Virus record (IMG/VR): IMGVR_UViG_3300026478_000263
DNA from: a virus
Lineage: Duplodnaviria > Heunggongvirae > Uroviricota > Caudoviricetes
Length of the DNA stretch: 64,000 nt
Reading direction: 5' to 3' (one strand)
How positions within the stretch are numbered: the first letter of the stretch is position 1; each line of letters begins with the position of its first letter. Made by a program: the position numbers and the translations under genes. Shown here one piece after another: positions 1,700 to 24,005 of the stretch. The notes under the pieces were generated by a model, which had not been told where the DNA came from, did no database searches, and worked only from the letters and a program-made list of their open reading frames with translations.

Positions 1700-1700
1700 G

Positions 1701-2884: not shown

Positions 2885-2885
2885 T

Positions 2886-3191: not shown

Positions 3192-3481
3192 TGAAACCAC
3201 AGTTCCGAATCGACAAAAGAGACGGGTTTTGGACTGCTGACGTTTATTATGTTACCCAAAGTGGACAACAAGAACTCTTTCCGGAATGGGACGGGTTTGA
3301 AGAACCGTTTAGCGAATCTACTTACCAAAATATAAGTAATTGGTGTTACAATACGTTTAAGACGTATATTTGGCCCAAAAGAGCTCGCAGAATGAGCTAT
3401 ACCCAATTTTGGTTTAAGAATAAAAAGGATTTGGATTGGTTTGTTCTGTATTGGAGCGGAGTTGACATTTCGGAAGAGTGA
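3191..3481 (+). CDS. hypothetical phage protein
   Basis: 96-aa ORF, TAATG coupling. Confidence 0.65.
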   Translation: MKPQFRIDKRDGFWTADVYYVTQSGQQELFPEWDGFEEPFSESTYQNISNWCYNTFKTYIWPKRARRMSYTQFWFKNKKDLDWFVLYWSGVDISEE

Positions 3482-3490
3482 CTATATAAT
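3462..3490 (+). promoter_or_regulatory. sigma70-type promoter
   Basis: TTGACA(3462-3467)-17 nt-TATAAT(3485-3490), perfect consensus. Confidence 0.9.
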
Positions 3491-3521
3491 ATGTTTATTA
3501 AGTTAATTAACAGGAGCAAAA

Positions 3522-4718
3522 ATGGCTACTAAGACAGCAACCAAAACCCGTGTAACCAAAAAGCAAGTTATTGCACACCGCACTCGTGCAGTCAAAGATA
3601 CTAGCCCAAATTGGGAAGGTTGCGAATCTTGGGATGCCGACAAGTTCCATAAACACTTTCGTAGTAGCATGGACTACTATCGTTTAGAAAGCGACATTAA
3701 AACTTACAAGCCAATTATTGTTAAGTGGATGACTGATGCAGGCTGTGCTAAAGAAGACATTGTTGCTATTAAGAAAGTCAAAGACAATCGTATCAGCACC
3801 ACAATGGGCGCCATTGCTCACTGTCTGTTACGTGGTATGACTCCGCAACGTGCAGACTTTAACAGCGGCAAGGACACCGCCGCTTGGTTGCGTAATGCCA
3901 TTGTCAATGTAATCCTCGAAGGCAAAGACGATACCGAGGGCGAAGAAAAAGTTGAAGTCAAAAAAGAAGTGTACACTCCTAGCATTCAAGAACGTCTGCG
4001 TGAAGTTGCGCTGAATATGACTGAAGAAATTGAAAAGGCCTATGAGTCGTTTCAAATCGATCCGGAAAACTTTGATCCAAAAGCATTTAAGGTTCTTAAT
4101 TTGTTGAAGAGCCAGCAGGCCAAAGCCGCACACGCTCGTATCATTCGTGACTTTTATGCTCGCGATTTGGCAGAACTAGAAGAGCTTGCCAGCGGTAAAG
4201 CAGACGAACAGTTGAAAGAAGGTTACAGTCATCGTAGCAAAAAGCAGATTCGTAACTTCATTACATTTTTGCAGGAGATTCAAAACGCCTGTACTATGTT
4301 AATGCAGGAAGCCAAAGTGAATCGTGCTCCTCGTGCTAAGAAAGCAGTCAGTGTTGACAAACTTGTTGCTAAACTCAAGTACAAGAAAACTGACGAGCCA
4401 TTGAAATTGGTGTCAATTAATCCTACTGACATTATCGGTAGCAAGGAGTTGTGGGTTTATAACACTAAGAGCCGTAAGTTGGGCAAGTATGTTGCCAACG
4501 AATATATGGAATTAGGTGTTAAAGGCACCACAATTACCGGCTTTAGCGAAACACTCAGCATTATGAAGACTGTGCGTAAGCCAGAGGAAAAGATGAAAGA
4601 GTTCAAAGCCGCTGGTAAGGTGCAGTTGCGTAAGTTCTTAGACGAGATTAATGCTACAGAGGCTCGTATGAATGGACGCATTAACGAAGAGATTATTCTT
4701 CTTAAGGCTAGTTCTTAA
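3522..4718 (+). CDS. hypothetical early phage protein
   Basis: 398-aa basic/helical ORF behind a consensus promoter and AGGAG SD. Confidence 0.8.
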   Translation: MATKTATKTRVTKKQVIAHRTRAVKDTSPNWEGCESWDADKFHKHFRSSMDYYRLESDIKTYKPIIVKWMTDAGCAKEDIVAIKKVKDNRISTTMGAIAHCLLRGMTPQRADFNSGKDTAAWLRNAIVNVILEGKDDTEGEEKVEVKKEVYTPSIQERLREVALNMTEEIEKAYESFQIDPENFDPKAFKVLNLLKSQQAKAAHARIIRDFYARDLAELEELASGKADEQLKEGYSHRSKKQIRNFITFLQEIQNACTMLMQEAKVNRAPRAKKAVSVDKLVAKLKYKKTDEPLKLVSINPTDIIGSKELWVYNTKSRKLGKYVANEYMELGVKGTTITGFSETLSIMKTVRKPEEKMKEFKAAGKVQLRKFLDEINATEARMNGRINEEIILLKASS

Positions 4719-6796: not shown

Positions 6797-6805
6797 TGTT
6801 AAACC

Positions 6806-8740: not shown

Positions 8741-8765
8741 TTTAGGTATATTCCTGTGTTACCAA

Positions 8766-8796
8766 TATTTATGCTATGTTGGATTCTATATAAATA
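8766..8796. promoter_or_regulatory. divergent pair of T4-like late promoters
   Basis: CATAAATA on minus (8766-8773) and TATAAATA on plus (8789-8796). Confidence 0.75.
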
Positions 8797-8803
8797 CTAC
8801 ACT

Positions 8804-10417
8804 ATGAGCTCAAACATCGACAAAATTCTTCAAGATTTAGGTGACGCACTAAAATCAGCCGCTAACGGTGGCACACTATCTAAGGGCATTTCTGATACTG
8901 CTACACGTGAGCAGATGATTGTTACAGATAAAGGTGTACAGGTTGGCGTATTAAGTGCTGACAGAATTAGCGGAAACATTCACGTAGAAGGCGTTCTTGG
9001 CGCTGGAAAAATTGTTGCCGCAGGTACTAGCGAATTTGCTAACTTAAAAGTTAACGGCAAATTAGAAGCAGATACGCTGTTAGTTAAGAATGTTATTTCA
9101 GAACAAAGCCTAGAATCATTTACAAAATCCATTTCTTTTGCCAGCAGACAACTCAGCGATTTAGATGGTAAAGGCTTGCAATGGGACAGCCCAGATGTAA
9201 GTTATCAGTTTGTTTTTAAAGCAAACCCAAAAAGAATTTTCAGCACAGAATCTATTGATTTATACAAAGGTTCTAAGTATCAAATTGAAGGCACAGATGT
9301 TTTAGAGCGCACAAGATTAGGTAATTCAGTACGTGACAGTAACCTACGCACAGTGGGTCCTTTAGAAGAACTACGTGTTACAGGCGAAACAAACCTAGGT
9401 GACACAGTTTTTGTTAATGCCCTAGGAAGACTAGGTGTCAATACAGAAGAACCAAACGCAGTTATCAGTGCCGTTGACAATAATGTAGAAGTAATTTTAG
9501 GTGCGGATCAAGACTCAGTGGGTTTTGTAGGTACTTGGGGCAGTAACAGTTTCAGTATTGTTACCGATAACACAAGACGTATTACAGTATCAGGAAACAC
9601 TACAGAGTTTGGCAATGCTAAGAGCAAAGGCGCAATAGTCAAAGTTCACGGCAGATTAGAAGTAGACAGCATTGTATCTGACATCAGAATCGAAAAAACT
9701 AGTCCAATAGAATTTATAGCCAGTAAGGATAACAGTATTTTTGGCAAGGGTATGCAATGGAAGGGCGAAGGTGGTACACGTCAGTTTATTATGCTTCCAA
9801 ACCCTGACAGAATCTATTCTTCAGAAAGTCTTGAATTAGCAATTAACAAAGAATTCTGGATCGACGGTAAGAGTGTATTAAACAGAACTGACCTAGGAGT
9901 TAGCGTTGTTAACTCTAGTCTTACTCGTTTAGGCACACTGACATCATTAGATGTTGCTGGAACAGTAAACTTGTCAGACAGCATTACTGTACAAGACAGC
10001 GTAGTTACAATTAACAATTCTGTAACAATCAAAGACGGCTCGGGCACATTAAGATTATCCAGCAGTGGTATTACAGCAGATAAGTTTGGCATTGGCGAAG
10101 ACTTTGAAGTAGATAACGCTGGCAGTATCCGTATCGGTGACAAAAATAATACAACTAGAAATGTAAACATCTATGGACAACTAAGTGTAAACATTACCAA
10201 CCCACAAGAAGATGCGGCATTCAGCGTAGACGGAATGATGGTTATCAATGGTAAACGCTTTGCACACGGCGTAGGTGCTCCTACAGAAAAAGCCTGGAAC
10301 AAAGGCGATATCATTTGGAATAGCAGTCCAGTAAGAACTAGTTACGTTGGATGGATCTGCGTAATGAGCGGTACTCCTGGTACTTGGGAGCCGTTCGGTT
10401 ATATTGGCGGAAGATGA
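8804..10417 (+). CDS. virion structural protein with two internal repeats (start re-called from 8510 to ATG 8804)
   Basis: ATG 7 nt after TATAAATA; repeated G.QW...F....NP.RI.S.ES..L......I.G..VL.RT.LG.SV..S.L...G.L..L.V.G unit. Confidence 0.7.
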   Translation: MSSNIDKILQDLGDALKSAANGGTLSKGISDTATREQMIVTDKGVQVGVLSADRISGNIHVEGVLGAGKIVAAGTSEFANLKVNGKLEADTLLVKNVISEQSLESFTKSISFASRQLSDLDGKGLQWDSPDVSYQFVFKANPKRIFSTESIDLYKGSKYQIEGTDVLERTRLGNSVRDSNLRTVGPLEELRVTGETNLGDTVFVNALGRLGVNTEEPNAVISAVDNNVEVILGADQDSVGFVGTWGSNSFSIVTDNTRRITVSGNTTEFGNAKSKGAIVKVHGRLEVDSIVSDIRIEKTSPIEFIASKDNSIFGKGMQWKGEGGTRQFIMLPNPDRIYSSESLELAINKEFWIDGKSVLNRTDLGVSVVNSSLTRLGTLTSLDVAGTVNLSDSITVQDSVVTINNSVTIKDGSGTLRLSSSGITADKFGIGEDFEVDNAGSIRIGDKNNTTRNVNIYGQLSVNITNPQEDAAFSVDGMMVINGKRFAHGVGAPTEKAWNKGDIIWNSSPVRTSYVGWICVMSGTPGTWEPFGYIGGR

Positions 10418-10989
10418 TATCTGTATTTGGCAACGGCGAATCCAGAAAACATTTAGATTTAAATTCACTTACAGAAACTAAAGTTGGCTGTAACGCCATA
10501 CATAGAGACTACTCAGTCGACCATTTAGTCTGTGTAGACAGACGTATGGTACAAGAAGCACTGGATAGCCACTTTGCTGGCACAATCTATACTAGAAAAG
10601 ATTGGGCACACTTCTACAAAAACAATCCTGTAAAAATATTACCAGACTTGCCTTACCAGGGCACTACTAGACCTGACGAGCCTTTTCAATGGGGCAGTGG
10701 TCCGTATGCTGTTTTGTTAGCCGCTATGCTAGACGACCATGTAAACTTATTTGGTTTTGATCTACACAGCCCAACACAGTTTGTCAATAACATTTACAAA
10801 GATACTGCTAACTATGCAGATGCTACTAAACCCGCAGTGGATCCAAGGTATTGGATATACCAGATTGCTCGCGTGTTTGAATGTTTCCCCGATAAGTACT
10901 TTGTAGTTTTTAACAATACAGAATGGCAGATGCCCAGTAGTTGGCTTTTGGCAAATGTTAAATTCAAAACTATTGACAGTATAATGTAA
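10414..10989 (+). CDS. glycosyltransferase-like/Rossmann-like protein (start re-called to ATG 10414)
   Basis: ISVFGNGESR...VGCNAIHRD...DHLVCVD...LFGFDL pattern; ATGA overlap with upstream stop. Confidence 0.5.
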   Translation: MISVFGNGESRKHLDLNSLTETKVGCNAIHRDYSVDHLVCVDRRMVQEALDSHFAGTIYTRKDWAHFYKNNPVKILPDLPYQGTTRPDEPFQWGSGPYAVLLAAMLDDHVNLFGFDLHSPTQFVNNIYKDTANYADATKPAVDPRYWIYQIARVFECFPDKYFVVFNNTEWQMPSSWLLANVKFKTIDSIM

Positions 10990-11001
10990 TACCTATATAC
11001 T
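10973..11001 (+). promoter_or_regulatory. sigma70-type promoter for queD
   Basis: TTGACA(10973-10978)-17 nt-TATACT(10996-11001). Confidence 0.85.
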
Positions 11002-11009
11002 GTATCAAT

Positions 11010-11048
11010 AGAGGACTAGACGCTCACCCCTCTTTAAATACTCTGCGT
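11010..11048 (+). ncRNA. preQ1-I-like riboswitch aptamer (candidate) in the queD leader
   Basis: P1 AGAGG/CCUCU, loop ACUAGACGCUCACC, A/U-rich tail, pseudoknot ACGC/GCGU; starts at predicted +1 and precedes queD. Confidence 0.6.
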
Positions 11049-11079
11049 GTCATCAAACTTAACTTAAAAAGGGCAAGAG

Positions 11080-11637
11080 ATGACTTGGATCATTGATAAA
11101 ACATTTGAATTTTGTTATGGACATCGTGTTCATACACAAACACTAAACGGCGAATATGCGGCAGACTTGAAATGTGCTTGCAGACATTTACATGGACACG
11201 AAGGTAAAATGCAGGTTCATTTAACAGGCGACGGATTAGATAAAACTGGAATGGTCACTGACTTTAGACATTTAGAATGGCTAAAGAAATGGATCAACAC
11301 TTATATTGATCATCAATTTATTATTGATAAAAACGATCCGCTGTTTACTAAGATGCTGGGAGAAAAAGTCGAGCTAATTCCAGTGTATGTTCCAGAAACC
11401 GAATACGTTGCAGGTTGGCATATTCATCCAATCTATTATGCTAATATGTCTGGTCCTGAACAAGAATACTACGAAGGATTTATGGTAGTAGACTTTGTTC
11501 CAACATCGGAACACCTAAGTAGTTGGATGGCAGAATTAGTTGATGTCAAAATGAAAAAATTAGGCGTCAAAGTTCACAGCATCGAATGGTGGGAAACTCC
11601 TAAGAGTCGTAGTGTTTTTTATAAAGATGGTACGTAA
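11080..11637 (+). CDS. queD: 6-carboxy-5,6,7,8-tetrahydropterin synthase
   Basis: FEFCYGHR, CRHLHGH, GMVTDF, DHQFI, PTSEHL, WETPKS. Confidence 0.92.
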   Translation: MTWIIDKTFEFCYGHRVHTQTLNGEYAADLKCACRHLHGHEGKMQVHLTGDGLDKTGMVTDFRHLEWLKKWINTYIDHQFIIDKNDPLFTKMLGEKVELIPVYVPETEYVAGWHIHPIYYANMSGPEQEYYEGFMVVDFVPTSEHLSSWMAELVDVKMKKLGVKVHSIEWWETPKSRSVFYKDGT

Positions 11638-11788
11638 GTTTTGGAGACTATGGGCCAAGGCACTAGGAGAGAAAGCCGGTGTTACCAAACAAGAAGCGGA
11701 CAGGATTGCATTGATTCGAACTGTTATTGTATTGACTTATATAATAACTAACATATTCATTGTAGCGGGTGTAATAAGGCACTGGTAA
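11627..11788 (+). CDS. small membrane protein, 53 aa (absent from ORF track)
   Basis: MVRKFWRLWAKALGEKAG...IALIRTVIVLTYIITNIFIVAGVIRHW; TAATG-coupled to next gene. Confidence 0.7.
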   Translation: MVRKFWRLWAKALGEKAGVTKQEADRIALIRTVIVLTYIITNIFIVAGVIRHW

Positions 11789-12483
11789 TGCTAAACGTCA
11801 TTAGTTTAAAACACGGTACAAAGTACGGTCCGGAATATGTAAACAAACTTTACAATATGGTCTCAAGGCACTTAACTGTGCCTTTTGATTTTTATTGCTT
11901 TACTGAAGATCCTACAAACTTAAATCCTGCAATTAAAATTAAACCCTTGCCCAAAGGACTGTTTTCTGGTTGGTGGTGGAAACCATATATCTTTAAACAA
12001 GGACATTTTCCAGACGGTGATGTAAATTTGTTCTTTGATTTGGATATGGTTATTGTAGGTAATATAGACAAATTGGTTTCGTACCTGCCTGGAAATTTTG
12101 TTGGTTTGGAAGATGTAGGCAGAGTGTTTAGACGTGTGCCACCAAAATTAGGTAGTGCTGTACTGCGTTGGCCCAGTAACCATTTCAGCAATATTTGGGA
12201 CGATTTGGAAAACAATCCAGCGTTAACCAAAAAGTTCCCAGGTGATCAAGATTGGATTTGGCAGTCACACAAAAGTATTATAAAATTTTTCCCTGAAACT
12301 TGGATACAGAGCTACAAGTGGGAAATAAGACAGCGGGAAGAGTTGATTAGGGTTCAGGGTAAAAACGTGTTTAAGACGGTGCGTAGCCCGTCTATGAACC
12401 CGGATTGTAGCGTAATTGCGTTCCACGGAACACCAAATCCCGAAGATGTCCAGGACCAAATCATTGTTGACAACTGGCAGTAA
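11788..12483 (+). CDS. GT-A fold glycosyltransferase
   Basis: KHGTKYGPEYVNKL, FYCFTED, DxD motif FDLD, GDQDWI, FHG.PNP. Confidence 0.75.
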   Translation: MLNVISLKHGTKYGPEYVNKLYNMVSRHLTVPFDFYCFTEDPTNLNPAIKIKPLPKGLFSGWWWKPYIFKQGHFPDGDVNLFFDLDMVIVGNIDKLVSYLPGNFVGLEDVGRVFRRVPPKLGSAVLRWPSNHFSNIWDDLENNPALTKKFPGDQDWIWQSHKSIIKFFPETWIQSYKWEIRQREELIRVQGKNVFKTVRSPSMNPDCSVIAFHGTPNPEDVQDQIIVDNWQ

Positions 12484-12495
12484 CGATGCTATAAT
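12467..12495 (+). promoter_or_regulatory. sigma70-type promoter for uvsE
   Basis: TTGACA(12467-12472)-17 nt-TATAAT(12490-12495), perfect consensus. Confidence 0.9.
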
Positions 12496-12523
12496 ATATT
12501 ATCGTAACTTTATCGAGAGTTTT

Positions 12524-13543
12524 GTGAACAAACGTATTGGCTTTGCCTGTAAATGGATCGACCGTCCAGATCAAGTAGACGGTATTAAACCCAAAGATGA
12601 ATGTAAGAAATACAATACAGGAGCAACAACTGTGGCTTGGCTTAACCGTCAAACCAAAGATGTGGCTGTTGAAAAATTGTGGTCTTTGCTTGAACAAAAT
12701 ATCAACTCAACTAAATTATTAGTAGAAAGGGTAGGGCAATTAGATGATGACTTACGTATGGTACGCCTTAGCAGTGATATTCTTCCTGTCTACACTGAGC
12801 CTACTTGGTGCTGGTTTTGGCGTGAAAATGATGTGCAGACATACGCCCAAAAACATTTTGCAGAAGTGGGAGATATTGCTCGTTCCCGCAACGTTCGTCT
12901 CAGTTTTCATCCTGGTCAATTTACTGTGTTGGCAAGCGACAATCCTGATATTGTTCAGCGTTCTATAGAGGAGTTTGAGTATCATGCGGATATGGCGAGA
13001 TGGATGGGGTATGGTAAAAGATTTCAGGACTTTAAGATCAACGTCCACATCGCCGGTAGAGCCGGTCCAGCCGGTATTAAAAGTGCCCTCCCGAGACTTT
13101 CCCCCGAAGCAAGAAACTGCATCACCATCGAAAATGACGAAATCACCTGGGGAATCGACTCAAGCCTCGAACTTGCCAAAGATCTCGCTTTGGTGCTAGA
13201 CATACACCATCATTGGATTAATACTGGAGAATATATTGAAGCAACTGACGACCGTGTTAAAAGGATTATCGATAGTTGGCGTGGTGTGCGCCCTGTCATA
13301 CATTATAGTGTTTCACGGGAAGAGCATCTTAATGGCCATGCCACAGACTCCGCTCCCTCCCTACTTTCACTAATGGAAAGTGGACACAAAAAAGCAAAAC
13401 TCAGAGCACATTCGAACTTCTACTGGAACACAGCAGTGAACGAATGGGCACTGAGTTTTTGGGATCAGTTTGATATTATGTGCGAAAGCAAGGCTAAAAA
13501 TCTAGCCTCGTTTGCACTACACAAACAAGCGATTACTTCTTAG
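12524..13543 (+). CDS. uvsE: UV DNA damage endonuclease (start re-called to GTG 12524)
   Basis: RIGFACK, RLSSDILP, RLSFHPGQFTVLAS, IENDE, LDIHHH, HSNFY. Confidence 0.92.
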   Translation: MNKRIGFACKWIDRPDQVDGIKPKDECKKYNTGATTVAWLNRQTKDVAVEKLWSLLEQNINSTKLLVERVGQLDDDLRMVRLSSDILPVYTEPTWCWFWRENDVQTYAQKHFAEVGDIARSRNVRLSFHPGQFTVLASDNPDIVQRSIEEFEYHADMARWMGYGKRFQDFKINVHIAGRAGPAGIKSALPRLSPEARNCITIENDEITWGIDSSLELAKDLALVLDIHHHWINTGEYIEATDDRVKRIIDSWRGVRPVIHYSVSREEHLNGHATDSAPSLLSLMESGHKKAKLRAHSNFYWNTAVNEWALSFWDQFDIMCESKAKNLASFALHKQAITS

Positions 13544-13751
13544 GGGCTTTCTTAGCAGGAGCCTTTTTTGCGGCTGCTGGTTTACGGCCAGCGGCCTTTT
13601 TCTTAGGTGCTTCTGCTTTAGGTGCCTCAGCAACTGGAGCAGGTGCTTCTACTTTAGTTTCTTCCACTTTAGGTGCTTCAACCTTGTATGGTGCTTCTGC
13701 TACGGTTTCTTGAGACTTACCGCCAAATAGTTTTTTTAATAATGACAACAT
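13533..13751 (-). CDS. small Lys/Ala/Pro-rich protein (start re-called to 13751)
   Basis: GGAG SD and TATAAATA upstream on minus; MLSLLKKLFGG then EAP/PAKK-rich tail. Confidence 0.7.
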   Translation of the reverse strand: MLSLLKKLFGGKSQETVAEAPYKVEAPKVEETKVEAPAPVAEAPKAEAPKKKAAGRKPAAAKKAPAKKAPKK

Positions 13752-13773
13752 TCTAGTGTCCTCCATGAGCAAA

Positions 13774-13781
13774 TATTTATA
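13774..13781 (-). promoter_or_regulatory. T4-like late promoter
   Basis: TATAAATA on minus strand upstream of the 13751 start. Confidence 0.7.
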
Positions 13782-14064
13782 GTTTACTAATATCATCCAG
13801 GCTCGAAACAGTCTTATCCCATATGATTTTGCGTTCTGCACCTTTTTTCTGTGCAAATCTCTTAGGATCGCAACTAGGGCAACAGTGAAAGAAATTATTG
13901 TTTAACCTATTAGGATCCATTGATCCTTTAGTCCTAGTAAATGTTTCACCGCAGTTATCACAGCGCAGGACTACAATAGTTTTTTTACGTTCATAAGTAT
14001 GCTCACGACCAAGTTTACTAGTTCGTGTATGCTGACTTTTTTCTGTATCTATACGTATGAACAT
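13777..14064 (-). CDS. zinc-ribbon protein
   Basis: RCDNCGETF...HCCPSC; TAAATA just upstream on minus. Confidence 0.7.
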   Translation of the reverse strand: MFIRIDTEKSQHTRTSKLGREHTYERKKTIVVLRCDNCGETFTRTKGSMDPNRLNNNFFHCCPSCDPKRFAQKKGAERKIIWDKTVSSLDDISKL

Positions 14065-14068
14065 CAGT

Positions 14069-14104
14069 TATTTACATTAAGGTTATAAAATTATCTGCTA
14101 AATA
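14069..14104. promoter_or_regulatory. divergent pair of late promoters
   Basis: TAAATA on minus (14069-14074) and CTAAATA on plus (14098-14104). Confidence 0.6.
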
Positions 14105-14134
14105 TTGGATACAAAGTCTTTTTTGGAGTATTCA

Positions 14135-17100
14135 ATGGCACGTAAAATAGTCGACATCGGCGTATCAGGTAATGACGGAACTGGTGATAGTATCCGTGAA
14201 GCGTTTAGAAAAACGAATGAAAACTTCCAAGAGTTATATGCTGTTTTCGGTCAAGGCGGATTTTTAAAGTTCACTGACCTTAGCGATACTCCTGATACAT
14301 TAGTAGGACAAGGTAATAAGATTCCAGTAGTTAATTCTATTGGTACTAGTTTAGTATTCAAAGACTTTTTCAGTCCTAACGGTACTATCCAGTTTGATTA
14401 TTCCGAGCAAGAAACCTTTGATATTGTTAGTGTATCAAGAAGTAGCAACGTTGCCACTATTACACTTTCAGCAAACCACAATTTAGATCCTGGACAACGA
14501 GTTACAATCGCGTCCACAGACAATACTTCATTTAACACTACTTCTGCCCTATTGTTAACTGGCACAGTAGACAATGTTCTAGTATATACAAACGCAGGAA
14601 CAAACTTATCAACTAGTGCGGCAACTGGTACTATTACCAGTTACGGTTCCGTTAAAATTGATACATTAAGTTCTAAATTACAGGACGACCCATTACCAAA
14701 ATTACAATATGCGCTGGATGCACGTAATCAATTAATCGGCGGCTTACGCAGTCCTATTAATCAAACAGATTTCCAAACTGCTGTTAATAGTTTCAACACA
14801 CAGCACGAAACTCTTTATAGCATAGATTCCTTTGCTATTAACAAAGGTTATGCCGACTCCAAATATGTAAACATTACAGGCGACACAATGACTGGTCACT
14901 TAAATGTGCCAGCAAACGCCACAGGTAACCAAGCACCACGTGCCGCAGAAGTTGTATTAAAAACTGGCGGCGATATGACTGGTGTGCTAAACTTAGCAGA
15001 TCATCCAGGCGGACTTGCAGGTGCTGGTACGCCTAACGGAGAAGATGACTTACAAGCCGCTACAAAATATTATGTAGATAATTCAAGTTATTCAAGCAGA
15101 TTTAACTTGTACGTTACCACAGGCGGTGACGACACACAGGCACGTACACCGCGTGGAAAAGAAGGACGCGATCGTTCTTATGCTTATGCAAGTATTAACA
15201 AAGCCTGTCAAAAAGCAGAACAATTAGTAAATGATGCACCATGGGAAACTGGTCCTTATCGTCAGTTAATTGCCTACGGTGGCGGTGAAGCGTTCTCTGA
15301 AGTTACAAGAATTGAATCTGGTGCATCTGGTACTACTCGTGTTTACTTTACTAACAACGGTGGTTCTCGTGTTGACCAAGGTCAATTACCAAAACCAGAT
15401 ATTGTCTCCGGTAAGATTGTTGTTGGACGTACCAGCGGCGCACAGGGTTTCATTTATCAATACTATGGCTCCGATGGTAGTTCAAGTATCGGCGAAGACT
15501 ATTTTGACTTGCAGGATGTTATTGGTGATTTTGTGCCTGGCGAAAACCTAGAGTTTGACCAAGCAGTTAAAAATATCCAAATTAGTATTGTTGTTGAATC
15601 TGGTATCTATTTTGAAGACTATCCAATTCGTGTCCCGCCAAACGTTGCTATCGTTGGTGACGAATTGCGTAGATGTATTGTTCGTCCAGCGGACCGCCCA
15701 AGTCGCAGTCCATGGGTTGACGTTTGGTTCCGTAGAGATAAAACATTTGACGGATTAACTTTAACCAGCACAGAATACGGTTATCACTATCTAACAGACC
15801 CGTCTGATATTTTAAGTGAACCAAAGAACAACAGAGACCTTGACGTATTCTTATGTAACGATGCTGTTATTATTCGTCAGATTACCTGTCAAGGCCACGG
15901 CGGCTTTATGATGGTACTTGACCCAGAAGGTCAAATTTTAACCAAGTCTGCATATATTCAACAGTCCGGTTCTTTTGCAGGATCACTAAACAAACAACGT
16001 TTTGCTGGTGGACAGTATGTTGACGGCTTTGCTGGTAACGTTCCTCTTAAGATTCAAGAAAAAATCAGCGACACAGAATTCCTAGTAACAGGCAGTGAAC
16101 GTGCTCCAACAACTCCTTGCTCATTTGTTATTGACGGAAGAACTTTTAAAGTTGAAGCATACACTGATGACGGCAACGGCTATGGAAATGCTAGAAAATT
16201 AATTCGTCGAAACATCGACTTTATCAAAGCAGAAGTTATTGGTTATATTAATACAGAACTAAGTCCACCATTTACATTCAACGAAACCAAATGTGCTCGT
16301 GACGTTGGATTGATTGTTGATGCACTAGGTTACGATCTAGCACTAGGTACAAACTTTAATGCTGTACGTGCTGGACAATCATACTATCGCGGCACACAAT
16401 ACAGTATTCTTCCAGACCAAAAAGATGAATACTTAGATGCGTTAATCTATACAAGAACATTAATTTCTGATGTATTAGCCGGTAACTCTGTTGCACGTCT
16501 AAGAGCAGAAGCAAGTTTTGATGAGATAACAGATATCATTGCTAACGGTATTATTTCATCAGATACAATTACATGGTCAGATCCGTCAGGTGCTCCTACT
16601 TCAAGAGTAAATGCAAAAAATCTTATTTTAGATAACATTGAATTTATTAAAGAAGAAATTATTGCCTGGATTGCTGAAGAATATCCAGACTTTGTCTACG
16701 ACGAAGACAAGTGTCGTCGAGATGCGGCATACATTTTAAATTCTATTGTTTACGACTTACTATATGAAGGTAACTCGGCAACTGTAGAAGCCGGATATCA
16801 ATATTACGATGGTAACGGAAGTTTGCAAATTCCTGGACAAACATTGCAAACCACAGAAGCATTGGCCTATGCCAGTGGTGTTGCACAGTTAGTTGTTACT
16901 AATACTCCTGTTCCGTTCCCTAAACAAAGTGCTGTAACACAGGTATTTGATTTAGTTAATCCAGGTAGCGCAACTGAATCTGCTAGAGTAGGTGTGTTAA
17001 TGGGCTACATTAATACTATTATTTTAAGCGGACGTGAAGCGGCTCCTACTATTGAATATCCAACTTTCTATAGTGTGTCTGGTTCGTTAACAGACAGCAG

Positions 17101-20100
17101 AACATTATTGTTAAACAACAAAGAAAGTATCAAGTCTGACACATTAGTTTATCTACAACAAAGATATAGTTACAACCAAGATACTTGTGCTCGTGACACT
17201 GGATACATCTGCGATGCTATTGCACACGACATTTATTATAGCGGTAATTTAAAAACAGTTCAGGCAGCTCTAGCATACTTCAATGCTAGTGCTAGTTCTA
17301 AGATTGTTATTGACCAGCAGTTGGCCAACACACTTGCGGCTATTAACTACATTGAAACATTGATATTAAATGTTATTAATAACGAAGATCCAACAGTACG
17401 ATATCAACAATCTGTTCTACAGTATATCGATACCGATATTACCGATGGCGGCTTAGCAGAAGCAACTATTCAAGATTTGTTTGACGAGTTCATTGGCATT
17501 TTAGAAAATCCGCCAAGTGCTCGTGGTGCTCGTGCATTGTTAGTCGATAATAAAGATTTTATCAAAGCAGAAGTTATTAACTACATTAACAACAAATATG
17601 TAGGATTTACCTATGATTCTGCTACATGTCAACGTGACGTGGGTTATGTAATTGATGCTATTGGTTACGACTTAATGTTTGGCGGCAACTTCCAGACAAT
17701 TACAGCGGCAAGATCTTATTACAGAGCTTCAGCCGCTGTGGCTGTTGGCGTACAAAAAGCCGCAACTATTGACGCATTTACTTTCTTAAGAGATGAAATA
17801 TTATCTGTTGTTAGTGCAAGTGCTACCGCAGTTACTAGTGTAACTACCAACATGAATATGTTCTTAGATGTTATTACTAACGGACTAACTCAAGAACCTG
17901 CAATCGTAACTCCTGATCCAACAGGCTACGATGTAAATTATAATCGTGCTAGAACACTGATTGAATCTAACAGAGAATTTATTAAAGCAGAAGTAATTCA
18001 ATATATTTCTAACAACTATGTTGGATTAAGTTATGACCCTGCTGTATGCTTACGTGATACAGAATACATTTTAGATGCACTATATCACGACCTAACCTAC
18101 GGTGGTAACATTCAAACATTGATTGCTGGTAAGGCTTATTATTCTTACACAACTCTACAAGTTGCGGCTCCTGAGAAACCAGCAACATTGGCCGCATATG
18201 GTTATCTACAAAGTCTAGTTGAAGACATTGCATTAGACTTACCTATTACTGCATTACAAGGTGGTGTTGCGCAGGTTCGCGGTACTCCAGGTAACAGTTC
18301 TGCCAGTGCTACTGCTGGACAGCGTATTGGAGAAATTTTAACAATTATCGACCTTGGGCTCGGTTCTGTTCCTTCAACAATTACTCCAAGTACTGCTTGG
18401 GTAAGTGCTGGCTTAACTGGTGCAAATTCTGCACTACAAAGTGCTAAGTCAACTTTACAAACTGCTGTAACAAATTATATCGATGCTAATTATACAAACA
18501 CATTAGTTTACAATGAAGAAATTTGTTCACGAGACGTTGGCTTTATTGTTGCCGCAGTTTCAGCAGACTTGTTATATGGCGGAACATACTTAACAATTCG
18601 TGCCGCACAGCGTTACTATGTAGGTACTGCTAGTAGCCGTGTTGTATTAGAAAATCAATTATCACAAACATTAGATTCATTTGCCTATGCCAAGGAAGTT
18701 GCACAGGCTGTATTGAATCAAGTTCCACCAACATTAAATTATCAAGTTATTAACGATGTTGCTGTAGAGAATAGAGTATCACAGGTATTCAGTTCTGACT
18801 ACGACGGCTCTGCATTTGTTACACGAGCAGGACAGTTGTTTGATTTATTAAACGAAGTTATTACAGACCCGGAAGTAGATGTTTCAACAGTATTAACTGG
18901 TGCCAAACCTATCGTTTACCCAACATACAGATTAGTTCTTTCTACAACTACTCCTGTAACTAACGACTTAGAATATACTATTTCTACCTTCACTAGCAAG
19001 GCAGACTCGGGCGTCGGGGATGGATCTTACGATGTAGTATTCAGCATTGTTACGCCCGTTGGAACTACTGCTCCTAGAACTAAAACACGTTATAGAGTGT
19101 TTGGCAACAGCAACTCTAACTATAACAATGATGCTGTAGAGTGTGTAGCATCTACACTAACTTCGATGACACTACGTTATCCAAGTGACCCGGGTGCATT
19201 TGGCACTGGCACTACTACCATAGAGTATGTAAAAGACTTTATGCTACTAAGTGCTGGTAACACCAGTATGTGTTCAAATGACTTTACACAGATTAACGAC
19301 TTAGGTTATGGACTGGTTGCTACAAACATTGGTTTGATTGAAACAGTTTCTGTGTTCAGTTACTATTGCTGGACTGCTTATTATGCCAACAACGGTGGAC
19401 AGATTCGTTCATTGAACGGTTCTAACGCACACGGCGAGTATGGTATTATTTCTGAAGGTAGTGATCCATTAGAAGTTCCAGATAAGTGTAACTTGTCAGA
19501 CAACATGATGCAGGTTGCTCGTGTTTACAAACAAGGAATTTATAGCACAGACAACGATGTTGGTGATTTACAGGTATTTTTCTACCAACATGATTACTCA
19601 CCATACAACGTATCTGAAGTTGAAATTAACCACGGCGCTGGCGTTGTTACAGAACTAGACGCAACTAGTTTAATCGGTGGTAGTGGTTATACCAACGGCA
19701 CATATATTAATGTTCCGTTAACAGGCGGAACTGGTAGTGGTATCACTGCTAACATTGTTGTGTCAGGAGGTGTAGTAACTACTGTAGGTTTAGTTGCCGC
19801 AGGTATTAGATACAGCGAAGGTGATATTTTAAGTTGCAGTAATACAAACGTAGGCGGAACAGGTTCGGGCTTCTTTATCACTGTTAAAACTATTATTGGT
19901 AACGGTATTGCTCGTTACGAAGTTGCAGGTGTAACTGATGTTTCAAGTACCTTGGCACAGTCTGTTTCTGGAACACCACTTAAGACTGGGCCAACAGGCG
20001 GAAAATATTACGTAACATATTCGTTCACTGCTGAACCATATACACCAAGAATTGGTGTACCTTACACAGTTAGTGGATCAACAACTTCTGGGTTTAACGG

Positions 20101-23100
20101 TGTATATACTGCTACCGCTAGTACAACATCTAGTGTTACACTAGAGTACAGTACCAATCCTGGAACATGGGCAGGCGGTTTGGCTAGCCTATGGGGCCTA
20201 GGCAACGTTCTACGTCTAAACATCAACACTGGCGGTAATAATGATACTGCTACAAACGGCTTGGCCGTAGCATTGTCACATGACCAACCAATTATTATTC
20301 GCAGTAACCAAAACTTTAAGTTCTACGAAGTCGATGACACTAACCCGGTTCGTCCAAGTACTGCATTGACATTCGTCGGTGATCCCGATGCAGGTGCTAT
20401 TGTTTATCGTGTGTTAGCATACGGTAACAAAGGTCCATTAAATGAAGACCTTGCGGTAGACGAAAGTATTCTAGGCTTCGATACAACTTACGATTATGTA
20501 AAATTACTAGTCAATGCAGAAAATGTATCTAACGCTGATCCAGATAATGTTGGACAGACTATGGGGTCGACTGCTGGTGATACTAAGATTGCCATCGACC
20601 GTGTAAACGAAACTGACATTGAAAGCAGACTTAATACCGGAGATATGATTACTGCCTGGGATGGCAAGATTCATAAAATTTTAAGTTACACTGACATGGG
20701 GTTATTAGCCGGTTACGCTTATGTTGAAATAGAAGATGTCGCTGATAAGTGTCTAGCAGGAACATCTGCTAGCGGTATTAATACACCAGTTGATCCAGAC
20801 TTTAACTTGGATATTTCTGAACCTCCAACATTACGTGCAGGTTTATCTAGCACAGAGCCAGCAGAAGTTATTGTACGTATTAGTACTTGCCGTGTTACAG
20901 GACATGACTTCTTAGACATTGGTACTGGAGGCTATAACGATACTAACTTCCCAAGCAAGATTTACGGTGCTCCAAAAGAACCTAACCAAGCACGTGAAGT
21001 TACAGAACGTACAAGAGGACGTTGTTTCTATGTAACCACAGACCAAGACGGTATTTTCCGTGTAGGTCGATTCTTTACAGTTGACCAAGGTACTGGTCGT
21101 GTAACGTTTGCGGCATCTATTGCGTTGTCAAACTTAGACGGTCTAGGATTTAAGCGTGGTGTTACAGTTAGTGAATTCTCAAACGATGATAGATTTACTG
21201 ACGGTGCTAACGATGCGCTACCAACTGAAGCGGCAACACAAGGTTACATTGACAGACGTCTTGGAATGGATCGTACAAATAACGTTCTAGATCCAACTGC
21301 ACTAATTGGTCCAGGCTACATGGATCGTGCTGGTTTGTTAACATTTACTGGTCCAGATCCAATGGACATGGGCGGATTTGTTATTGCTAACTTAGGTAGT
21401 CCTACTGCTGATACAGATGCGGCTAACAAGTTATATGTTAGAAATCAAGAACTAAGCGATGACAGAGTTGATACTTCAACAAGTCCAGCAAGAAGTTTAA
21501 ATGATTTATTAGTTTATAACGGAGTTAAATGGATCAACGCTGAAACAGTTAGCACAGGCGATATTCAAACTTCATTGACTCCTGGAACTAAAAATCTTGC
21601 TTTAAACATCAAGTCTAATGTAATTATTAACGCAGACGTTAATTCTAGTGCGGCTATTGCACAAAGTAAGTTAGACATGAATAAAGCAACTACTCGTGCA
21701 AATGCTACAAGTATTGCACAGGCAGATTTGGGTCTAGCAAGTTTCAAGAGTACAGAATTTACTGCAACTAACGGTTGGATTGAGTTGCAAACATCCAGTT
21801 CAACAACTACAGGTGTATTACAAACTAAATTACAGTATATTGCCAACGACACTTATTTAGGTAATAATACAGGCAGTGCTACATATCCTCGTCAAGTAAC
21901 ATCTGGACAGATTGTTACCAACGGCGATGGTATTAAGAATGCGTCATTTGCTCCAGGATCAGTAGGTAGCAATGGTCGTGCAATGATTTTAACTGCTATT
22001 GGTCCAAACGCTTACAGTACAACAAACATTAGTACAAGTGCTCAGGCTAGTTCATTGATACAATCTGATGGTAGCGGCCGTGTTGCTGTAGCACAGTTAG
22101 ACTTAACTTCAAGTAGTTATAAGACCTTAAGCGTCAGCGGAACTACACTGACTATGACTACACCCGGTGCTGTAGACTTCTTAACAGCAGTTGGAACTAC
22201 TTCAGCAGGCACAACTATTACCACAGTTGGTACTTTAAGTGCAAACGCAATAACATCAGCAAGCACTACAACATTTAGTCCTGCTAATGCTAACGTAACA
22301 CTAAGTCCAAGTGGTACCGGTACTGTAACTATTGCTCCGGCCAGTGTCGGATCAATAAACAACGTAAACATTGGTGCAACTACTCGAGGTAATGGTTATT
22401 TTAAATTGTTGTCTGCTAACGATACAGTAACCTTAACTGCTAACCAAGCAGTAACAGGTGCTGCCAACGGTACTGGTACATTACAGGTTACAGGCGGTGC
22501 AGGTATCAGTGGCGACCTACGTGTTGGTGGAACTATCTACGGTGCTGTTACTGGTACATTGGCTGGTACACTGGGTCTAAGCACATACCTAAGTTTCACT
22601 GCTGGTTCAAGTTACGATGGTAGTACAACACGTACAATCCAAACTAACGCAACAAGTGCGGCCACAGGAAGCACATTAGTTGCACGTGACGTTAACGGTG
22701 ACTTCAACGGACGTTATATTAACAGCAGTTACTTTAACAGTAGCGACGATGTAAGTGGTGGCACCATTACATACATAATGGCTAAGTTTGGCGATAACTA
22801 CTATCGCTCTGCTACAGCCGCAAAAGTTGCTTCGTTCATTAGCGGACAGTCAATGAACATTGCAGGTAATGCAAGTACAGTTACAATTAACTATAACAAC
22901 GATAGTAACAGCACATATCAAATGTTATGGGGTAGCGGTAATAGTGTATATGGCACAGGCGGCATTTATTGTAATCCATTTACCGACACACTATACGCAA
23001 CATTATTCAATGGTACTGCTACAAGTGCTCGTTACGCTGACTTGGCTGAAAAATACTTGTCAGATGCAGAATATGAAACTGGTACTGTTGTAGTATTTGG

Positions 23101-23413
23101 TGGTGATGAAGAAATTACAGTCACTGACAAACATAACGATACTAGAGTTGCTGGTGTTATTTCTGAAAAACCAGCGCATTTGATGAACTCTGATTTAGCA
23201 GGAAAACATCCACTAGCAGTAGGCCTAACAGGACGCTTGCCATGTAAAGTACTTGGTAAGGTTAAGAAAGGTGATATTCTAGTTACTGCGGCTAAGAAAG
23301 GTTACGCAATAGTTAATAATACTCCATCTGTAGGAACTATTATTGGTAAGAGTTTAGAGAACAAAGACGATTTAGGCGAAGGCCTAGTTGAGATTGTTGT
23401 TGGTAGATTCTAA
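14135..23413 (+). CDS. giant baseplate/tail-fibre protein, 3092 aa, with six CxRD repeats and C-terminal chaperone/autocleavage-type domain
   Basis: N-term IVDIGVSGNDGTGDSIREAFRKTNENFQELY (T4 gp9/gp10-like); C-term ARYADLAEKY...GTVVVFGG...GVIS..PAHLMN...GLTGRLPCKV; GGAG SD before ATG 14135. Confidence 0.8.
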   Translation: MARKIVDIGVSGNDGTGDSIREAFRKTNENFQELYAVFGQGGFLKFTDLSDTPDTLVGQGNKIPVVNSIGTSLVFKDFFSPNGTIQFDYSEQETFDIVSVSRSSNVATITLSANHNLDPGQRVTIASTDNTSFNTTSALLLTGTVDNVLVYTNAGTNLSTSAATGTITSYGSVKIDTLSSKLQDDPLPKLQYALDARNQLIGGLRSPINQTDFQTAVNSFNTQHETLYSIDSFAINKGYADSKYVNITGDTMTGHLNVPANATGNQAPRAAEVVLKTGGDMTGVLNLADHPGGLAGAGTPNGEDDLQAATKYYVDNSSYSSRFNLYVTTGGDDTQARTPRGKEGRDRSYAYASINKACQKAEQLVNDAPWETGPYRQLIAYGGGEAFSEVTRIESGASGTTRVYFTNNGGSRVDQGQLPKPDIVSGKIVVGRTSGAQGFIYQYYGSDGSSSIGEDYFDLQDVIGDFVPGENLEFDQAVKNIQISIVVESGIYFEDYPIRVPPNVAIVGDELRRCIVRPADRPSRSPWVDVWFRRDKTFDGLTLTSTEYGYHYLTDPSDILSEPKNNRDLDVFLCNDAVIIRQITCQGHGGFMMVLDPEGQILTKSAYIQQSGSFAGSLNKQRFAGGQYVDGFAGNVPLKIQEKISDTEFLVTGSERAPTTPCSFVIDGRTFKVEAYTDDGNGYGNARKLIRRNIDFIKAEVIGYINTELSPPFTFNETKCARDVGLIVDALGYDLALGTNFNAVRAGQSYYRGTQYSILPDQKDEYLDALIYTRTLISDVLAGNSVARLRAEASFDEITDIIANGIISSDTITWSDPSGAPTSRVNAKNLILDNIEFIKEEIIAWIAEEYPDFVYDEDKCRRDAAYILNSIVYDLLYEGNSATVEAGYQYYDGNGSLQIPGQTLQTTEALAYASGVAQLVVTNTPVPFPKQSAVTQVFDLVNPGSATESARVGVLMGYINTIILSGREAAPTIEYPTFYSVSGSLTDSRTLLLNNKESIKSDTLVYLQQRYSYNQDTCARDTGYICDAIAHDIYYSGNLKTVQAALAYFNASASSKIVIDQQLANTLAAINYIETLILNVINNEDPTVRYQQSVLQYIDTDITDGGLAEATIQDLFDEFIGILENPPSARGARALLVDNKDFIKAEVINYINNKYVGFTYDSATCQRDVGYVIDAIGYDLMFGGNFQTITAARSYYRASAAVAVGVQKAATIDAFTFLRDEILSVVSASATAVTSVTTNMNMFLDVITNGLTQEPAIVTPDPTGYDVNYNRARTLIESNREFIKAEVIQYISNNYVGLSYDPAVCLRDTEYILDALYHDLTYGGNIQTLIAGKAYYSYTTLQVAAPEKPATLAAYGYLQSLVEDIALDLPITALQGGVAQVRGTPGNSSASATAGQRIGEILTIIDLGLGSVPSTITPSTAWVSAGLTGANSALQSAKSTLQTAVTNYIDANYTNTLVYNEEICSRDVGFIVAAVSADLLYGGTYLTIRAAQRYYVGTASSRVVLENQLSQTLDSFAYAKEVAQAVLNQVPPTLNYQVINDVAVENRVSQVFSSDYDGSAFVTRAGQLFDLLNEVITDPEVDVSTVLTGAKPIVYPTYRLVLSTTTPVTNDLEYTISTFTSKADSGVGDGSYDVVFSIVTPVGTTAPRTKTRYRVFGNSNSNYNNDAVECVASTLTSMTLRYPSDPGAFGTGTTTIEYVKDFMLLSAGNTSMCSNDFTQINDLGYGLVATNIGLIETVSVFSYYCWTAYYANNGGQIRSLNGSNAHGEYGIISEGSDPLEVPDKCNLSDNMMQVARVYKQGIYSTDNDVGDLQVFFYQHDYSPYNVSEVEINHGAGVVTELDATSLIGGSGYTNGTYINVPLTGGTGSGITANIVVSGGVVTTVGLVAAGIRYSEGDILSCSNTNVGGTGSGFFITVKTIIGNGIARYEVAGVTDVSSTLAQSVSGTPLKTGPTGGKYYVTYSFTAEPYTPRIGVPYTVSGSTTSGFNGVYTATASTTSSVTLEYSTNPGTWAGGLASLWGLGNVLRLNINTGGNNDTATNGLAVALSHDQPIIIRSNQNFKFYEVDDTNPVRPSTALTFVGDPDAGAIVYRVLAYGNKGPLNEDLAVDESILGFDTTYDYVKLLVNAENVSNADPDNVGQTMGSTAGDTKIAIDRVNETDIESRLNTGDMITAWDGKIHKILSYTDMGLLAGYAYVEIEDVADKCLAGTSASGINTPVDPDFNLDISEPPTLRAGLSSTEPAEVIVRISTCRVTGHDFLDIGTGGYNDTNFPSKIYGAPKEPNQAREVTERTRGRCFYVTTDQDGIFRVGRFFTVDQGTGRVTFAASIALSNLDGLGFKRGVTVSEFSNDDRFTDGANDALPTEAATQGYIDRRLGMDRTNNVLDPTALIGPGYMDRAGLLTFTGPDPMDMGGFVIANLGSPTADTDAANKLYVRNQELSDDRVDTSTSPARSLNDLLVYNGVKWINAETVSTGDIQTSLTPGTKNLALNIKSNVIINADVNSSAAIAQSKLDMNKATTRANATSIAQADLGLASFKSTEFTATNGWIELQTSSSTTTGVLQTKLQYIANDTYLGNNTGSATYPRQVTSGQIVTNGDGIKNASFAPGSVGSNGRAMILTAIGPNAYSTTNISTSAQASSLIQSDGSGRVAVAQLDLTSSSYKTLSVSGTTLTMTTPGAVDFLTAVGTTSAGTTITTVGTLSANAITSASTTTFSPANANVTLSPSGTGTVTIAPASVGSINNVNIGATTRGNGYFKLLSANDTVTLTANQAVTGAANGTGTLQVTGGAGISGDLRVGGTIYGAVTGTLAGTLGLSTYLSFTAGSSYDGSTTRTIQTNATSAATGSTLVARDVNGDFNGRYINSSYFNSSDDVSGGTITYIMAKFGDNYYRSATAAKVASFISGQSMNIAGNASTVTINYNNDSNSTYQMLWGSGNSVYGTGGIYCNPFTDTLYATLFNGTATSARYADLAEKYLSDAEYETGTVVVFGGDEEITVTDKHNDTRVAGVISEKPAHLMNSDLAGKHPLAVGLTGRLPCKVLGKVKKGDILVTAAKKGYAIVNNTPSVGTIIGKSLENKDDLGEGLVEIVVGRF
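16200..18700 (+). repeat. six tandem 140-159 aa protein repeats (boundaries approximate)
   Basis: Cys codons of CxRD at 16292, 16712, 17186, 17627, 18047, 18524; each preceded by N..FIK.E...YI and followed by DAI.YDL..GGN..T..A...YY. Confidence 0.85.
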
Positions 23414-23423
23414 GGAAAATAAC

Positions 23424-24005
23424 ATGGCATTATATGATGATTTACAAGAGATTAACCTAGGAAATGTCGTCAACGACGGTACTGGGGACGACCTGCGTAC
23501 AGCCTTTGAAAAAGTTAAAACTAACTTTGAATATCTGTACAACAACGGTTATGCTCCAGTTAGTGCTGAAAATATAGGCACTTCAGGACTAGGTGTTTTT
23601 AAACAAAAGAACGCAGACAGCAATCTAGAACTTAGAAAACTAGATGCGCTAGGACCACTAAGATTACAATTAGTAGGAGATGTGTTGCAGTTAGATTTAC
23701 ATCCAACGGCTACAGTTGACTTTAATGGGCAGGCTATTAATAACATTAGTACTGTTACAGCCACTACATTTTCTGGCACTTTAACTGGAAATGTTGTAGG
23801 TTTAATTAGAAACGGCGGAACTGCAACTCAAAACCCGTTTGTTGATGTAACACTTTTAGATAGACAGGTAAATACATTTGACTATGGACCCATTGCACCT
23901 ACGTACTACGATCCAATTACTTATTTGTTAAATGAAATTGGAACGGACATGGGCACGTTTACCGACCCGAGCCCTATAAGTATAGACGCTGGACCCATAG
24001 CATAA
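23424..24005 (+). CDS. baseplate/tail protein with gp9/gp10-like N-terminus (start re-called to 23424)
   Basis: INLGNVVNDGTGDDLRTAFEKVKTNFEYLY. Confidence 0.7.
   Translation: MALYDDLQEINLGNVVNDGTGDDLRTAFEKVKTNFEYLYNNGYAPVSAENIGTSGLGVFKQKNADSNLELRKLDALGPLRLQLVGDVLQLDLHPTATVDFNGQAINNISTVTATTFSGTLTGNVVGLIRNGGTATQNPFVDVTLLDRQVNTFDYGPIAPTYYDPITYLLNEIGTDMGTFTDPSPISIDAGPIA

Follow-up and report, generated by a model that had tools for sequence, protein, structure and literature searches.

Phycobiliproteins have paralogues in heterotrophs, the BBAGs, which bind bilins without lyases; two of them, BBAG-1 and BBAG-3, carry the motif CXRD (Rockwell, Martin, Lagarias 2023, PMC10151467). Genes for bilin synthesis are also found in phages, as hemO-pcyX, pebS and pcyA cassettes (Ledermann et al., as cited in PMC11480375). 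What purpose hemO and a gene for an FDBR-type bilin reductase serve in phages of non-cyanobacteria has been called "still enigmatic", with an interaction with BBAGs mentioned as a mere possibility (PMC11480375, 2024 Nature Communications). Here we analyze a stretch of 64,000 nucleotides (nt) from the Caudoviricetes virus record IMGVR_UViG_3300026478_000263 of IMG/VR (hereafter, the window), which encodes a giant virion protein with six tandem repeats, each built around a C-x-R-D motif. By homology, the six repeats belong with the bilin-binding globins, a group that comprises the phycobiliproteins and the paralogous BBAGs. Joined head to tail, they make up the shaft of a giant protein of the tail-fibre type, encoded by an uncultured, abundant jumbo phage, apparently from freshwater. 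Such repeats in giant phage virion proteins are apparently undescribed, as our literature searches found no paper on phycobiliprotein-like domains there.

The fibre gene was read from a list of open reading frames (ORFs) and their translations, with two candidates for its start codon, the TTG at 14105 and the ATG at 14135. Within the ORF of 3102 amino acids (aa), the C-x-R-D motif occurs six times, at residues 730, 870, 1028, 1175, 1315, and 1474, with spacings of 140, 158, 147, 140, and 159 aa. A hidden Markov model (HMM) of the repeat delimited the whole block to residues 686-1609 (nt 16160-18931), with individual repeats of 140-176 aa. In window coordinates, the gene and its parts are as follows.

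14105..23413, + strand: gene for the giant tail-fibre-type virion protein, 3102 aa (from the ORF list and translation)
16160..16591, + strand: repeat 1, aa 686-829, a phycobiliprotein-like globin domain; motif K-C-A-R-D, Cys codon at 16292
16592..17065, + strand: repeat 2, aa 830-987; motif K-C-R-R-D, Cys codon at 16712
17066..17506, + strand: repeat 3, aa 988-1134; motif T-C-A-R-D, Cys codon at 17186
17507..17926, + strand: repeat 4, aa 1135-1274, the copy used for folding; motif T-C-Q-R-D, Cys codon at 17627
17927..18403, + strand: repeat 5, aa 1275-1433; motif V-C-L-R-D, Cys codon at 18047
18404..18931, + strand: repeat 6, aa 1434-1609; motif I-C-S-R-D, Cys codon at 18524
20879..21262, + strand: segment common to the tail-fibre family phrog_9851, aa 2259-2386 (PHROG match)
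22985..23392, + strand: C-terminal tail-fibre-type domain, aa 2961-3096 (phrog_22593 and phrog_19602, tail fiber protein)

When the six repeats were cut at their proline-rich linkers and aligned over their full length, they showed 28-37% identity, with C41, R43, D44, D55, A67, and Y71 invariant. The 3102-aa protein as a whole matched the tail-fibre and virion-structural families phrog_5342, 4527, 9851, and 701 of PHROG, the tail-fibre families with E-values of 1e-47 to 1e-65. One of these, phrog_9851, also covers a repeat-bearing fibre gene that lies near hemO and a bilin reductase gene on another contig (G063:C167, described below). Two homologues of the protein are annotated: p091 of phage S-PM2 is a tail fiber protein, and PHM1_097 of phage P-HM1 is a giant "YapH" protein. 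Neighbouring ORFs of the window match baseplate-wedge, tail-fibre, and virion-structural PHROG families. A preliminary description of the window had proposed six tandem CxRD repeats, 140-159 aa apart, in a virion fibre at positions 16200-18700. All six were recovered, and the three peptides that it quoted are present verbatim; the block lies where it was placed, although its true extent is slightly wider at both ends, and the PHROG tail-fibre families, together with the annotated homologues in S-PM2 and P-HM1, bear out the assignment to a virion fibre.

At window positions 23388-24005 (+ strand), a further ORF overlaps the end of the fibre gene, and its N-terminus matches the connector families phrog_958 and phrog_677 (baseplate-wedge/tail-fibre). 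On these family matches, its product would be compatible with a partner for fibre attachment.

Kinship of the repeats with phycobiliproteins was examined at increasing profile depth. In a Pfam search, the whole 3102-aa protein matched the phycobiliprotein family PF00502 with an E-value of 0.083 (13.3 bits), and repeat 4 of the window taken singly reached 0.001 (19.5 bits); the gathering cut-off is 22.2 bits, and the window copies thus fall just below it. Searched individually, 17 of 150 diverse repeats matched PF00502 (best E-value 3e-5), and every other Pfam family was matched by at most two of the 150. Many homologues already bore precomputed PF00502 matches. A profile built from the six repeats and compared with the PDB put three phycocyanin alpha chains on top (E-values 0.1-0.4), with the Cys of the repeat aligned to Cys84. 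When the profile was built from 150 sequences, phycocyanin alpha was matched at an E-value of 0.0057, 30 of the 35 listed chains were phycobiliproteins, Cys41 fell on Cys84, and some alignments spanned helix A to helix G.

A direct profile comparison (hhalign) against four CpcA/CpcB sequences from the Acaryochloris plasmid pREB3 gave a probability of 84% and an E-value of 8e-7 over 130 columns, with residues 1-148 of the repeat on residues 30-172 of the phycobiliproteins. The C-x-R-D motif itself is conserved at 93-97% over 828 copies and present in all six copies of the window, and its register with Cys84 was obtained by both HMMER and hhalign. No proximal His column is conserved in the repeat family. 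A counterpart of the X-Y hairpin of phycobiliproteins was not found either: their residues 1-29 are unmatched in the hhalign alignment, and the chain ranges matched by the structural aligner VIA-align begin at residues 31-49. Since this N-terminal hairpin is absent from the repeat, alpha-beta pairing or trimer discs are not expected.

Structure prediction led to the same family. From a 150-row alignment, AlphaFold2 modelled repeat 4 as a seven-helix globin fold with a predicted local distance difference test score (pLDDT) of 94.2 and a predicted template modelling score (pTM) of 0.89. The 50 best Foldseek matches in the PDB were all phycobiliproteins or engineered derivatives of them (TM-scores 0.58-0.71), with E-values of 6e-3 to 4e-2 and none at or below 1e-3. 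VIA-align, which is independent of Foldseek, ranked the bilin-binding domain of ApcE first (Z 15.4, root-mean-square deviation 2.2 Å, 117 residues); its top eight matches were all phycobiliproteins (Z 13-15), followed by photocobilin, sensor globins, and RsbR at Z 10-12. A search of AFDB clusters, weaker than the PDB search, returned phycocyanin alpha at rank 1 and a phycobilisome protein at rank 3 (E-value about 0.06), and a feature search of the ESM Atlas gave weak leads (0.76-0.77), one of them a phycobilisome-protein cluster.

A tandem model of repeats 4 and 5 reached a pLDDT of 95.4 and a pTM of 0.90; at this pTM, the units are predicted to hold a fixed mutual orientation, which suggests a stiff rod to us. 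For a homotrimer of one repeat, the prediction scored 0.00 ("no answer") and is evidence neither way. The preliminary description had suggested a globin fold, to be checked by structure prediction and Foldseek, and a gap-free register with the chromophore helix of phycocyanin alpha. The confident model is a seven-helix globin rather than some other fold, its best 50 PDB matches are phycobiliproteins or their derivatives, and the profile alignments set Cys41 on Cys84, in agreement with that proposal.

The domain defines a large family, all of whose observed members are in giant proteins of the phage type. In a search of 1.84 billion cluster representatives, at least 1498 proteins contained the domain, with up to 37 copies each. 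Among 50,697 records of isolated phages, tblastn detected it in 115 Synechococcus, Prochlorococcus, or "Cyanophage" records and in one unannotated single-cell marine virus record, and in no others; blastn of the repeat DNA against isolated phages returned no match. By profile, S-PM2 carries nine copies and P-HM1 and P-HM2 carry five each, and the same search found no repeat in P-SSM2, P-SSP7, or T4. A scan of IMG/VR with a degenerate DNA motif matched at least 119 stretches. Fifty contigs were checked among the matches listed, and all 50 encode the domain, with psbA present in one. Most of these 50 are fragments; from their lengths and completeness estimates, the full genomes would measure about 350 kb.

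Cellular genomes were covered by a pattern search of 185,579 species genomes, which yielded 61 matches, 15 of them real domains and 46 due to chance. A cellular origin was rejected, as all 15 real domains reside in giant ORFs on metagenome-bin or draft contigs assigned to unrelated taxa, none of them cyanobacterial. We also observed that the assembly labelled "Rhodobacteraceae bacterium Water_Bin34" (G059) contains at least three repeat-bearing contigs with giant ORFs together with three FDBR genes, apparently reflecting heavy phage contamination.

As for what the repeats do on the fibre, we see about an even chance that they act as self-attaching acceptors of bilins and turn the fibre into a pigmented rod. 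Each repeat would accept a linear tetrapyrrole without a lyase, in the manner of BBAGs. Phages of heterotrophs would synthesize the bilin late in infection, with a heme oxygenase (HemO) and a PcyX-type reductase of their own, and cyanophages would take it from the host. Once complete, the fibre would display bilins in a row, each bound covalently. Bilin attachment to the repeats is putative, and candidates for the role that a pigment might have on the virion are light sensing that gates adsorption, photoprotection, or stabilization of the fold alone. The preliminary description had offered two readings of the domains, as carriers of bilins or as structural relatives of the phycobiliprotein/globin fold; for the first of these, the joint loss of pocket residues, the relocation of the Cys within the pocket, and the occurrence of hemO and a bilin reductase gene on the same phage contigs are circumstantial support.

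The residues around the Cys suggest that each repeat keeps a putative chromophore pocket, comprising a thiol equivalent to Cys84, the Arg and Asp by which phycobiliproteins hold their bilin, and a co-varying Tyr and Thr. To describe their behaviour, 1533 copies from 151 proteins were aligned to the HMM; these copies are not independent of one another. A defined subset of residues, distributed over three helices, is either retained or lost jointly. Of the 1533 copies, 1434 contain Cys41, and the partner residues are conserved in these at 98% (R43), 100% (D44), and 99% (Y71). Where Cys41 is missing (99 copies), the corresponding values are 44% for R43, 59% for D44, and 66% for Y71, with T87 at about 40%; columns N15, D55, G59, G60, N61, and Q117 are unchanged in these copies, and overall identity to the consensus is only slightly lower without Cys41 (0.36) than with it (0.42). 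The mapping of pocket positions onto CpcA (Y36 to Y74, Y71 to Y110, T87 to Y129) is tentative, as it comes from a low-confidence part of the hhalign alignment.

Among the copies with Ser41, 12 of 13 keep both R43 and D44 and have a Cys at column 87, normally occupied by Thr. Only 2 of the 1434 canonical copies have Cys87 (Fisher p 2e-13 for the comparison with the Ser41 copies, which are again not independent). The Ser41/Cys87 copies are diverse, with a median pairwise identity of 0.30. When a bulky hydrophobic residue (Phe, Tyr, Trp, or Leu) occupies position 41, R43 is kept in just 25%, and the Arg and Asp are mostly gone. A thiol that relocates within the site while its partner residues stay is expected of a ligand-attachment pocket and not of a residue that serves packing. 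In ApcE, the best structural match, the bilin is likewise bound via a Cys at a non-canonical position, with no lyase involved. The swap copies make up a subfamily with the Cys on a later helix; P0051:218-378 and P0134:1325-1474 are examples.

Genes for bilin synthesis were found together with the repeats on four contigs. On G021 (328 kb, 92% complete, 19 repeats, no psbA), the genes for a heme oxygenase and an FDBR lie side by side, after those for Hsp20 and ClpS. Both enzymes are also encoded on G053 (278 kb, 11 repeats), whose polB is 89% identical to that of the window, and, together with repeats, on G058:C57, a 335-kb contig binned in a marine metagenome-assembled genome (MAG). The fourth contig, G063:C167 (17 kb), encodes, in this order, a repeat-bearing tail fibre, five ORFs (two of them tail-fibre-like), a heme oxygenase, an FDBR, and homologues of the T4 neck and tail-sheath-stabiliser proteins. 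On this contig, the genes for the two enzymes are surrounded by structural genes, and the fibre gene with the repeats is about 5 kb away. This locus (L291, positions 1531-14249) belongs to a T4-like phage contig that was binned in a Verrucomicrobiales MAG.

No reaction-centre gene was found in the records or bins of these four contigs. A GAF domain was not found in G021, in G053, or in the window's own record (G000), and thus no other type of bilin acceptor is recognizable in these three. Among isolated phages, the nearest match to the FDBR of the jumbo relatives is PcyX of Pelagibacter phage Mosig, at 40% identity.

Several observations weigh against a pigmented fibre. Our literature searches found no report of pigmented virions. 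Neither Mosig, which carries hemO-pcyX, nor P-SSM2, in which a heme oxygenase was detected, has a detectable repeat or a PF00502-like region; the bilin reductase genes of P-SSM2 are pebS/pcyA (PMC2984593). Conversely, G024, a complete, psbA-bearing contig with a repeat, has no FDBR and no heme oxygenase. The co-occurrence of repeats and bilin genes is partly a lineage effect. Within the pocket, D55 (100%) and D50 (about 80%) of the chromophore helix have no phycocyanin counterpart, which means that the pocket is not identical to that of phycocyanin, and two copies in PHM1_097 of P-HM1 read C-x-D-D, with the Arg replaced and the Cys and Asp in place. A strict rule by which bilin genes always accompany the repeat was rejected, given the enzymes without a repeat in Mosig and P-SSM2 and the repeat without enzymes in G024.

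Some of these observations would be accommodated if the repeat were a structural relic, that is, a captured bilin-binding globin that was multiplied as a rigid alpha-helical brick and in which C-x-R-D holds the fold through helix capping and salt bridges, with no chromophore. We regard this explanation, the main rival, as doubtful. It agrees with the rigid tandem model (pTM 0.90), with the loss of the X-Y hairpin that serves phycobiliprotein assembly, with conserved acidic residues (D50 and D55) that bilin binding does not explain, and with the roughly 6% of copies that manage without the Cys, as well as with bilin genes lacking repeats in Mosig and P-SSM2 and with the absence of any reported pigmented phage. 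However, a purely structural Cys is not expected to relocate while the Arg and Asp stay, as it does in the Ser41 copies (Cys87 in 12 of 13). The residues lost along with the Cys are a distinct subset, and the columns that keep the fold are intact. A lone Cys in 93% of more than 1500 copies of an extracellular protein domain, at 25-35% identity, would also be unusual for packing alone. Finally, a structural relic would leave the hemO-FDBR pair of psbA-less phages without a recognizable acceptor.

A functional pocket for something other than a bilin, be it a metal, heme or another tetrapyrrole, or a ligand of the host surface, is unlikely; the same probability applies to a thiol engaged in other chemistry, such as an inter-chain disulfide that locks the fibre. 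The globin superfamily does bind heme and cobalamin-linked ligands as well, and sensor globins and photocobilin follow in the structural ranking at Z 10-12. The Cys has conserved acidic residues (D44, D50, D55) in its vicinity, and the Cys swap by itself shows only that a thiol is required there. Yet the register match is specific to the chromophore helix of phycobiliproteins rather than to heme globins, with no column for a proximal His, and bilin binders are the nearest in structure by 2-4 Z units. One conserved Cys per domain, combined with possible odd copy numbers, argues against regular intradomain disulfides, and the presence of genes for bilin synthesis on the same contigs speaks for a bilin. 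A Cys-Gln thioester was rejected as unlikely, with Q117 showing no co-variation with the Cys.

An unrelated helical repeat with a C-x-R-D acquired by chance or convergence is scarcely credible: single-sequence statistics are indeed weak (Pfam E-value 0.083 for the whole protein, Foldseek 6e-3 to 4e-2), but the signal strengthens with profile depth (E-value from 0.1 to 0.0057), the alignment covers the whole globin core, all top fold matches of two independent aligners are phycobiliproteins, and PF00502 is the sole recurrent Pfam family.

Bilin acceptors on a fibre would bear on phage adsorption in light. P-HM1 and P-HM2 do not adsorb in the dark, S-PM2 shows a light-dependent, photosynthesis-independent adsorption, and P-SSM2 and P-SSP7 adsorb in the dark, with light-sensitive receptors or tail fibres named as possible causes (Liu et al. 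2019, PMC6628666). The presence of the repeat matches light dependence in all five phages, although this counts as only about two positive and two negative cases that are independent. The repeats might act as photoreceptors in adsorption, but support for this is thin. That phage particles are themselves pigmented photoreceptors, in which rows of bilins on the fibres absorb light and change the fibre so that adsorption takes place in the light only, strikes us as a long shot. If true, it would explain both the light-dependent adsorption of cyanomyoviruses and the occurrence of hemO/pcyX in phages of non-photosynthetic bacteria.

The source of the window is a 270-kb IMG/VR record with an estimated completeness of 71%, corresponding to a phage of roughly 380 kb. 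The DNA polymerase encoded in the window is closest to those of Sinorhizobium phage Phosso (50%), Agrobacterium phage Atu_ph07 (47%), and E. coli phage 121Q (44%), and a profile search did not find the repeat domain in these three phages. An assignment to the T4-like cyanophages was rejected on this basis, the nearest polB genes belonging to phages that carry no repeat. Searches of the 270-kb record (71% complete) for psbA, hli, CpeT (lyase type), heme oxygenase, and FDBR found none of them; the preliminary description had rightly remarked that the window is devoid of photosynthesis genes. Judging from its genes, the phage is not a cyanophage. A related polymerase is present on more than 590 IMG/VR contigs, the best 80 of which share 78-94% identity, indicating an abundant uncultured lineage of jumbo phages, apparently from freshwater. 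The exact sequence is present in riverine metagenomes, possibly the source samples themselves.

The domain occurs in three giant ORFs of the 270-kb record (3837 aa with about 10 copies, 3102 aa with six, and 2673 aa with one or two). Besides the fibre gene of the window, these are the following, both in the same genome and outside the window.

G000:C1:67909-79419, - strand: giant ORF of 3837 aa with about 10 C-x-R-D copies
G000:C1:79465-87483, - strand: giant ORF of 2673 aa with one or two copies, of which the readable one is T-R-R-D (Cys replaced by Thr)

Other genes were noted in the window. Directly upstream of the fibre gene, positions 11080-13543 (+ strand) contain genes for a QueD-like synthase, a glycosyltransferase, and an endonuclease. 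The replication-side part includes a gene for a 746-aa ATP-dependent protease at 38905-41145 (+ strand; phrog_4871, E-value 2e-250), and the T4-type DNA polymerase gene is located at 53998-56667 (+ strand).

Taken as bilin acceptors, the repeats would provide the enigmatic hemO and FDBR genes with a candidate phage-encoded partner that offers at least 17 sites per genome and, in one case, is encoded 5 kb from the enzymes. Two open questions of aquatic phage biology thereby become directly testable. Virus particles here make use of the fold of an antenna protein as a building block, and the family concerned, with some 1500 or more protein clusters, is almost without annotation. New in this analysis are the joint loss of the pocket residues, the relocation of the Cys, and the presence of the enzymes on the same contigs, once close to a fibre gene.

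Compared with known systems, the repeat shares with the phycobiliproteins (PF00502: CpcA/B, ApcA/B, CpeA/B, and the PB domain of ApcE) the helix order A-B-E-F'-F-G-H and the chromophore motif K-C-x-R-D-[IV]-G-Y...Y.L..GG, in register with Cys84, Arg86, and Asp87 of helix E. By analogy, the Ser41/Cys87 swap copies may resemble the lyase-free attachment of ApcE through a non-canonical Cys. Unlike phycobiliproteins, the phage domains lack the X-Y hairpin and are fused head to tail, with 6 to 37 domains per chain; they also have the additional conserved acidic residues D55 and D50, and some of their carriers have no photosynthesis genes. Among the structures of the PDB and AFDB, the matches favour phycobiliproteins. 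BBAGs are linked in the genome to heme oxygenase and FDBR genes, as are the phage repeats on four contigs. However, BBAGs are small, single-domain cytoplasmic proteins encoded in conserved operons, whereas the phage domains form tandem arrays in virion proteins, and the phage heme oxygenase and FDBR genes usually lie tens of kb from the repeats (5 kb on one contig).

The described hemO-pcyX, pebS, and pcyA cassettes of phages differ in that they concern the enzymes rather than the repeat, which is not detectable in Mosig and P-SSM2; in Mosig, the pair of heme oxygenase and FDBR genes adjoins neck genes, as it does on G063:C167. The giant proteins of T4-like cyanophages (p091 of S-PM2 and PHM1_097 of P-HM1) are 23-31% identical to the window protein and belong to phages of about 180-196 kb, as against the jumbo phage of the window. 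They contain the same repeat domain, in ORFs of 3300-4460 aa that are likewise annotated as virion or tail-fibre proteins.

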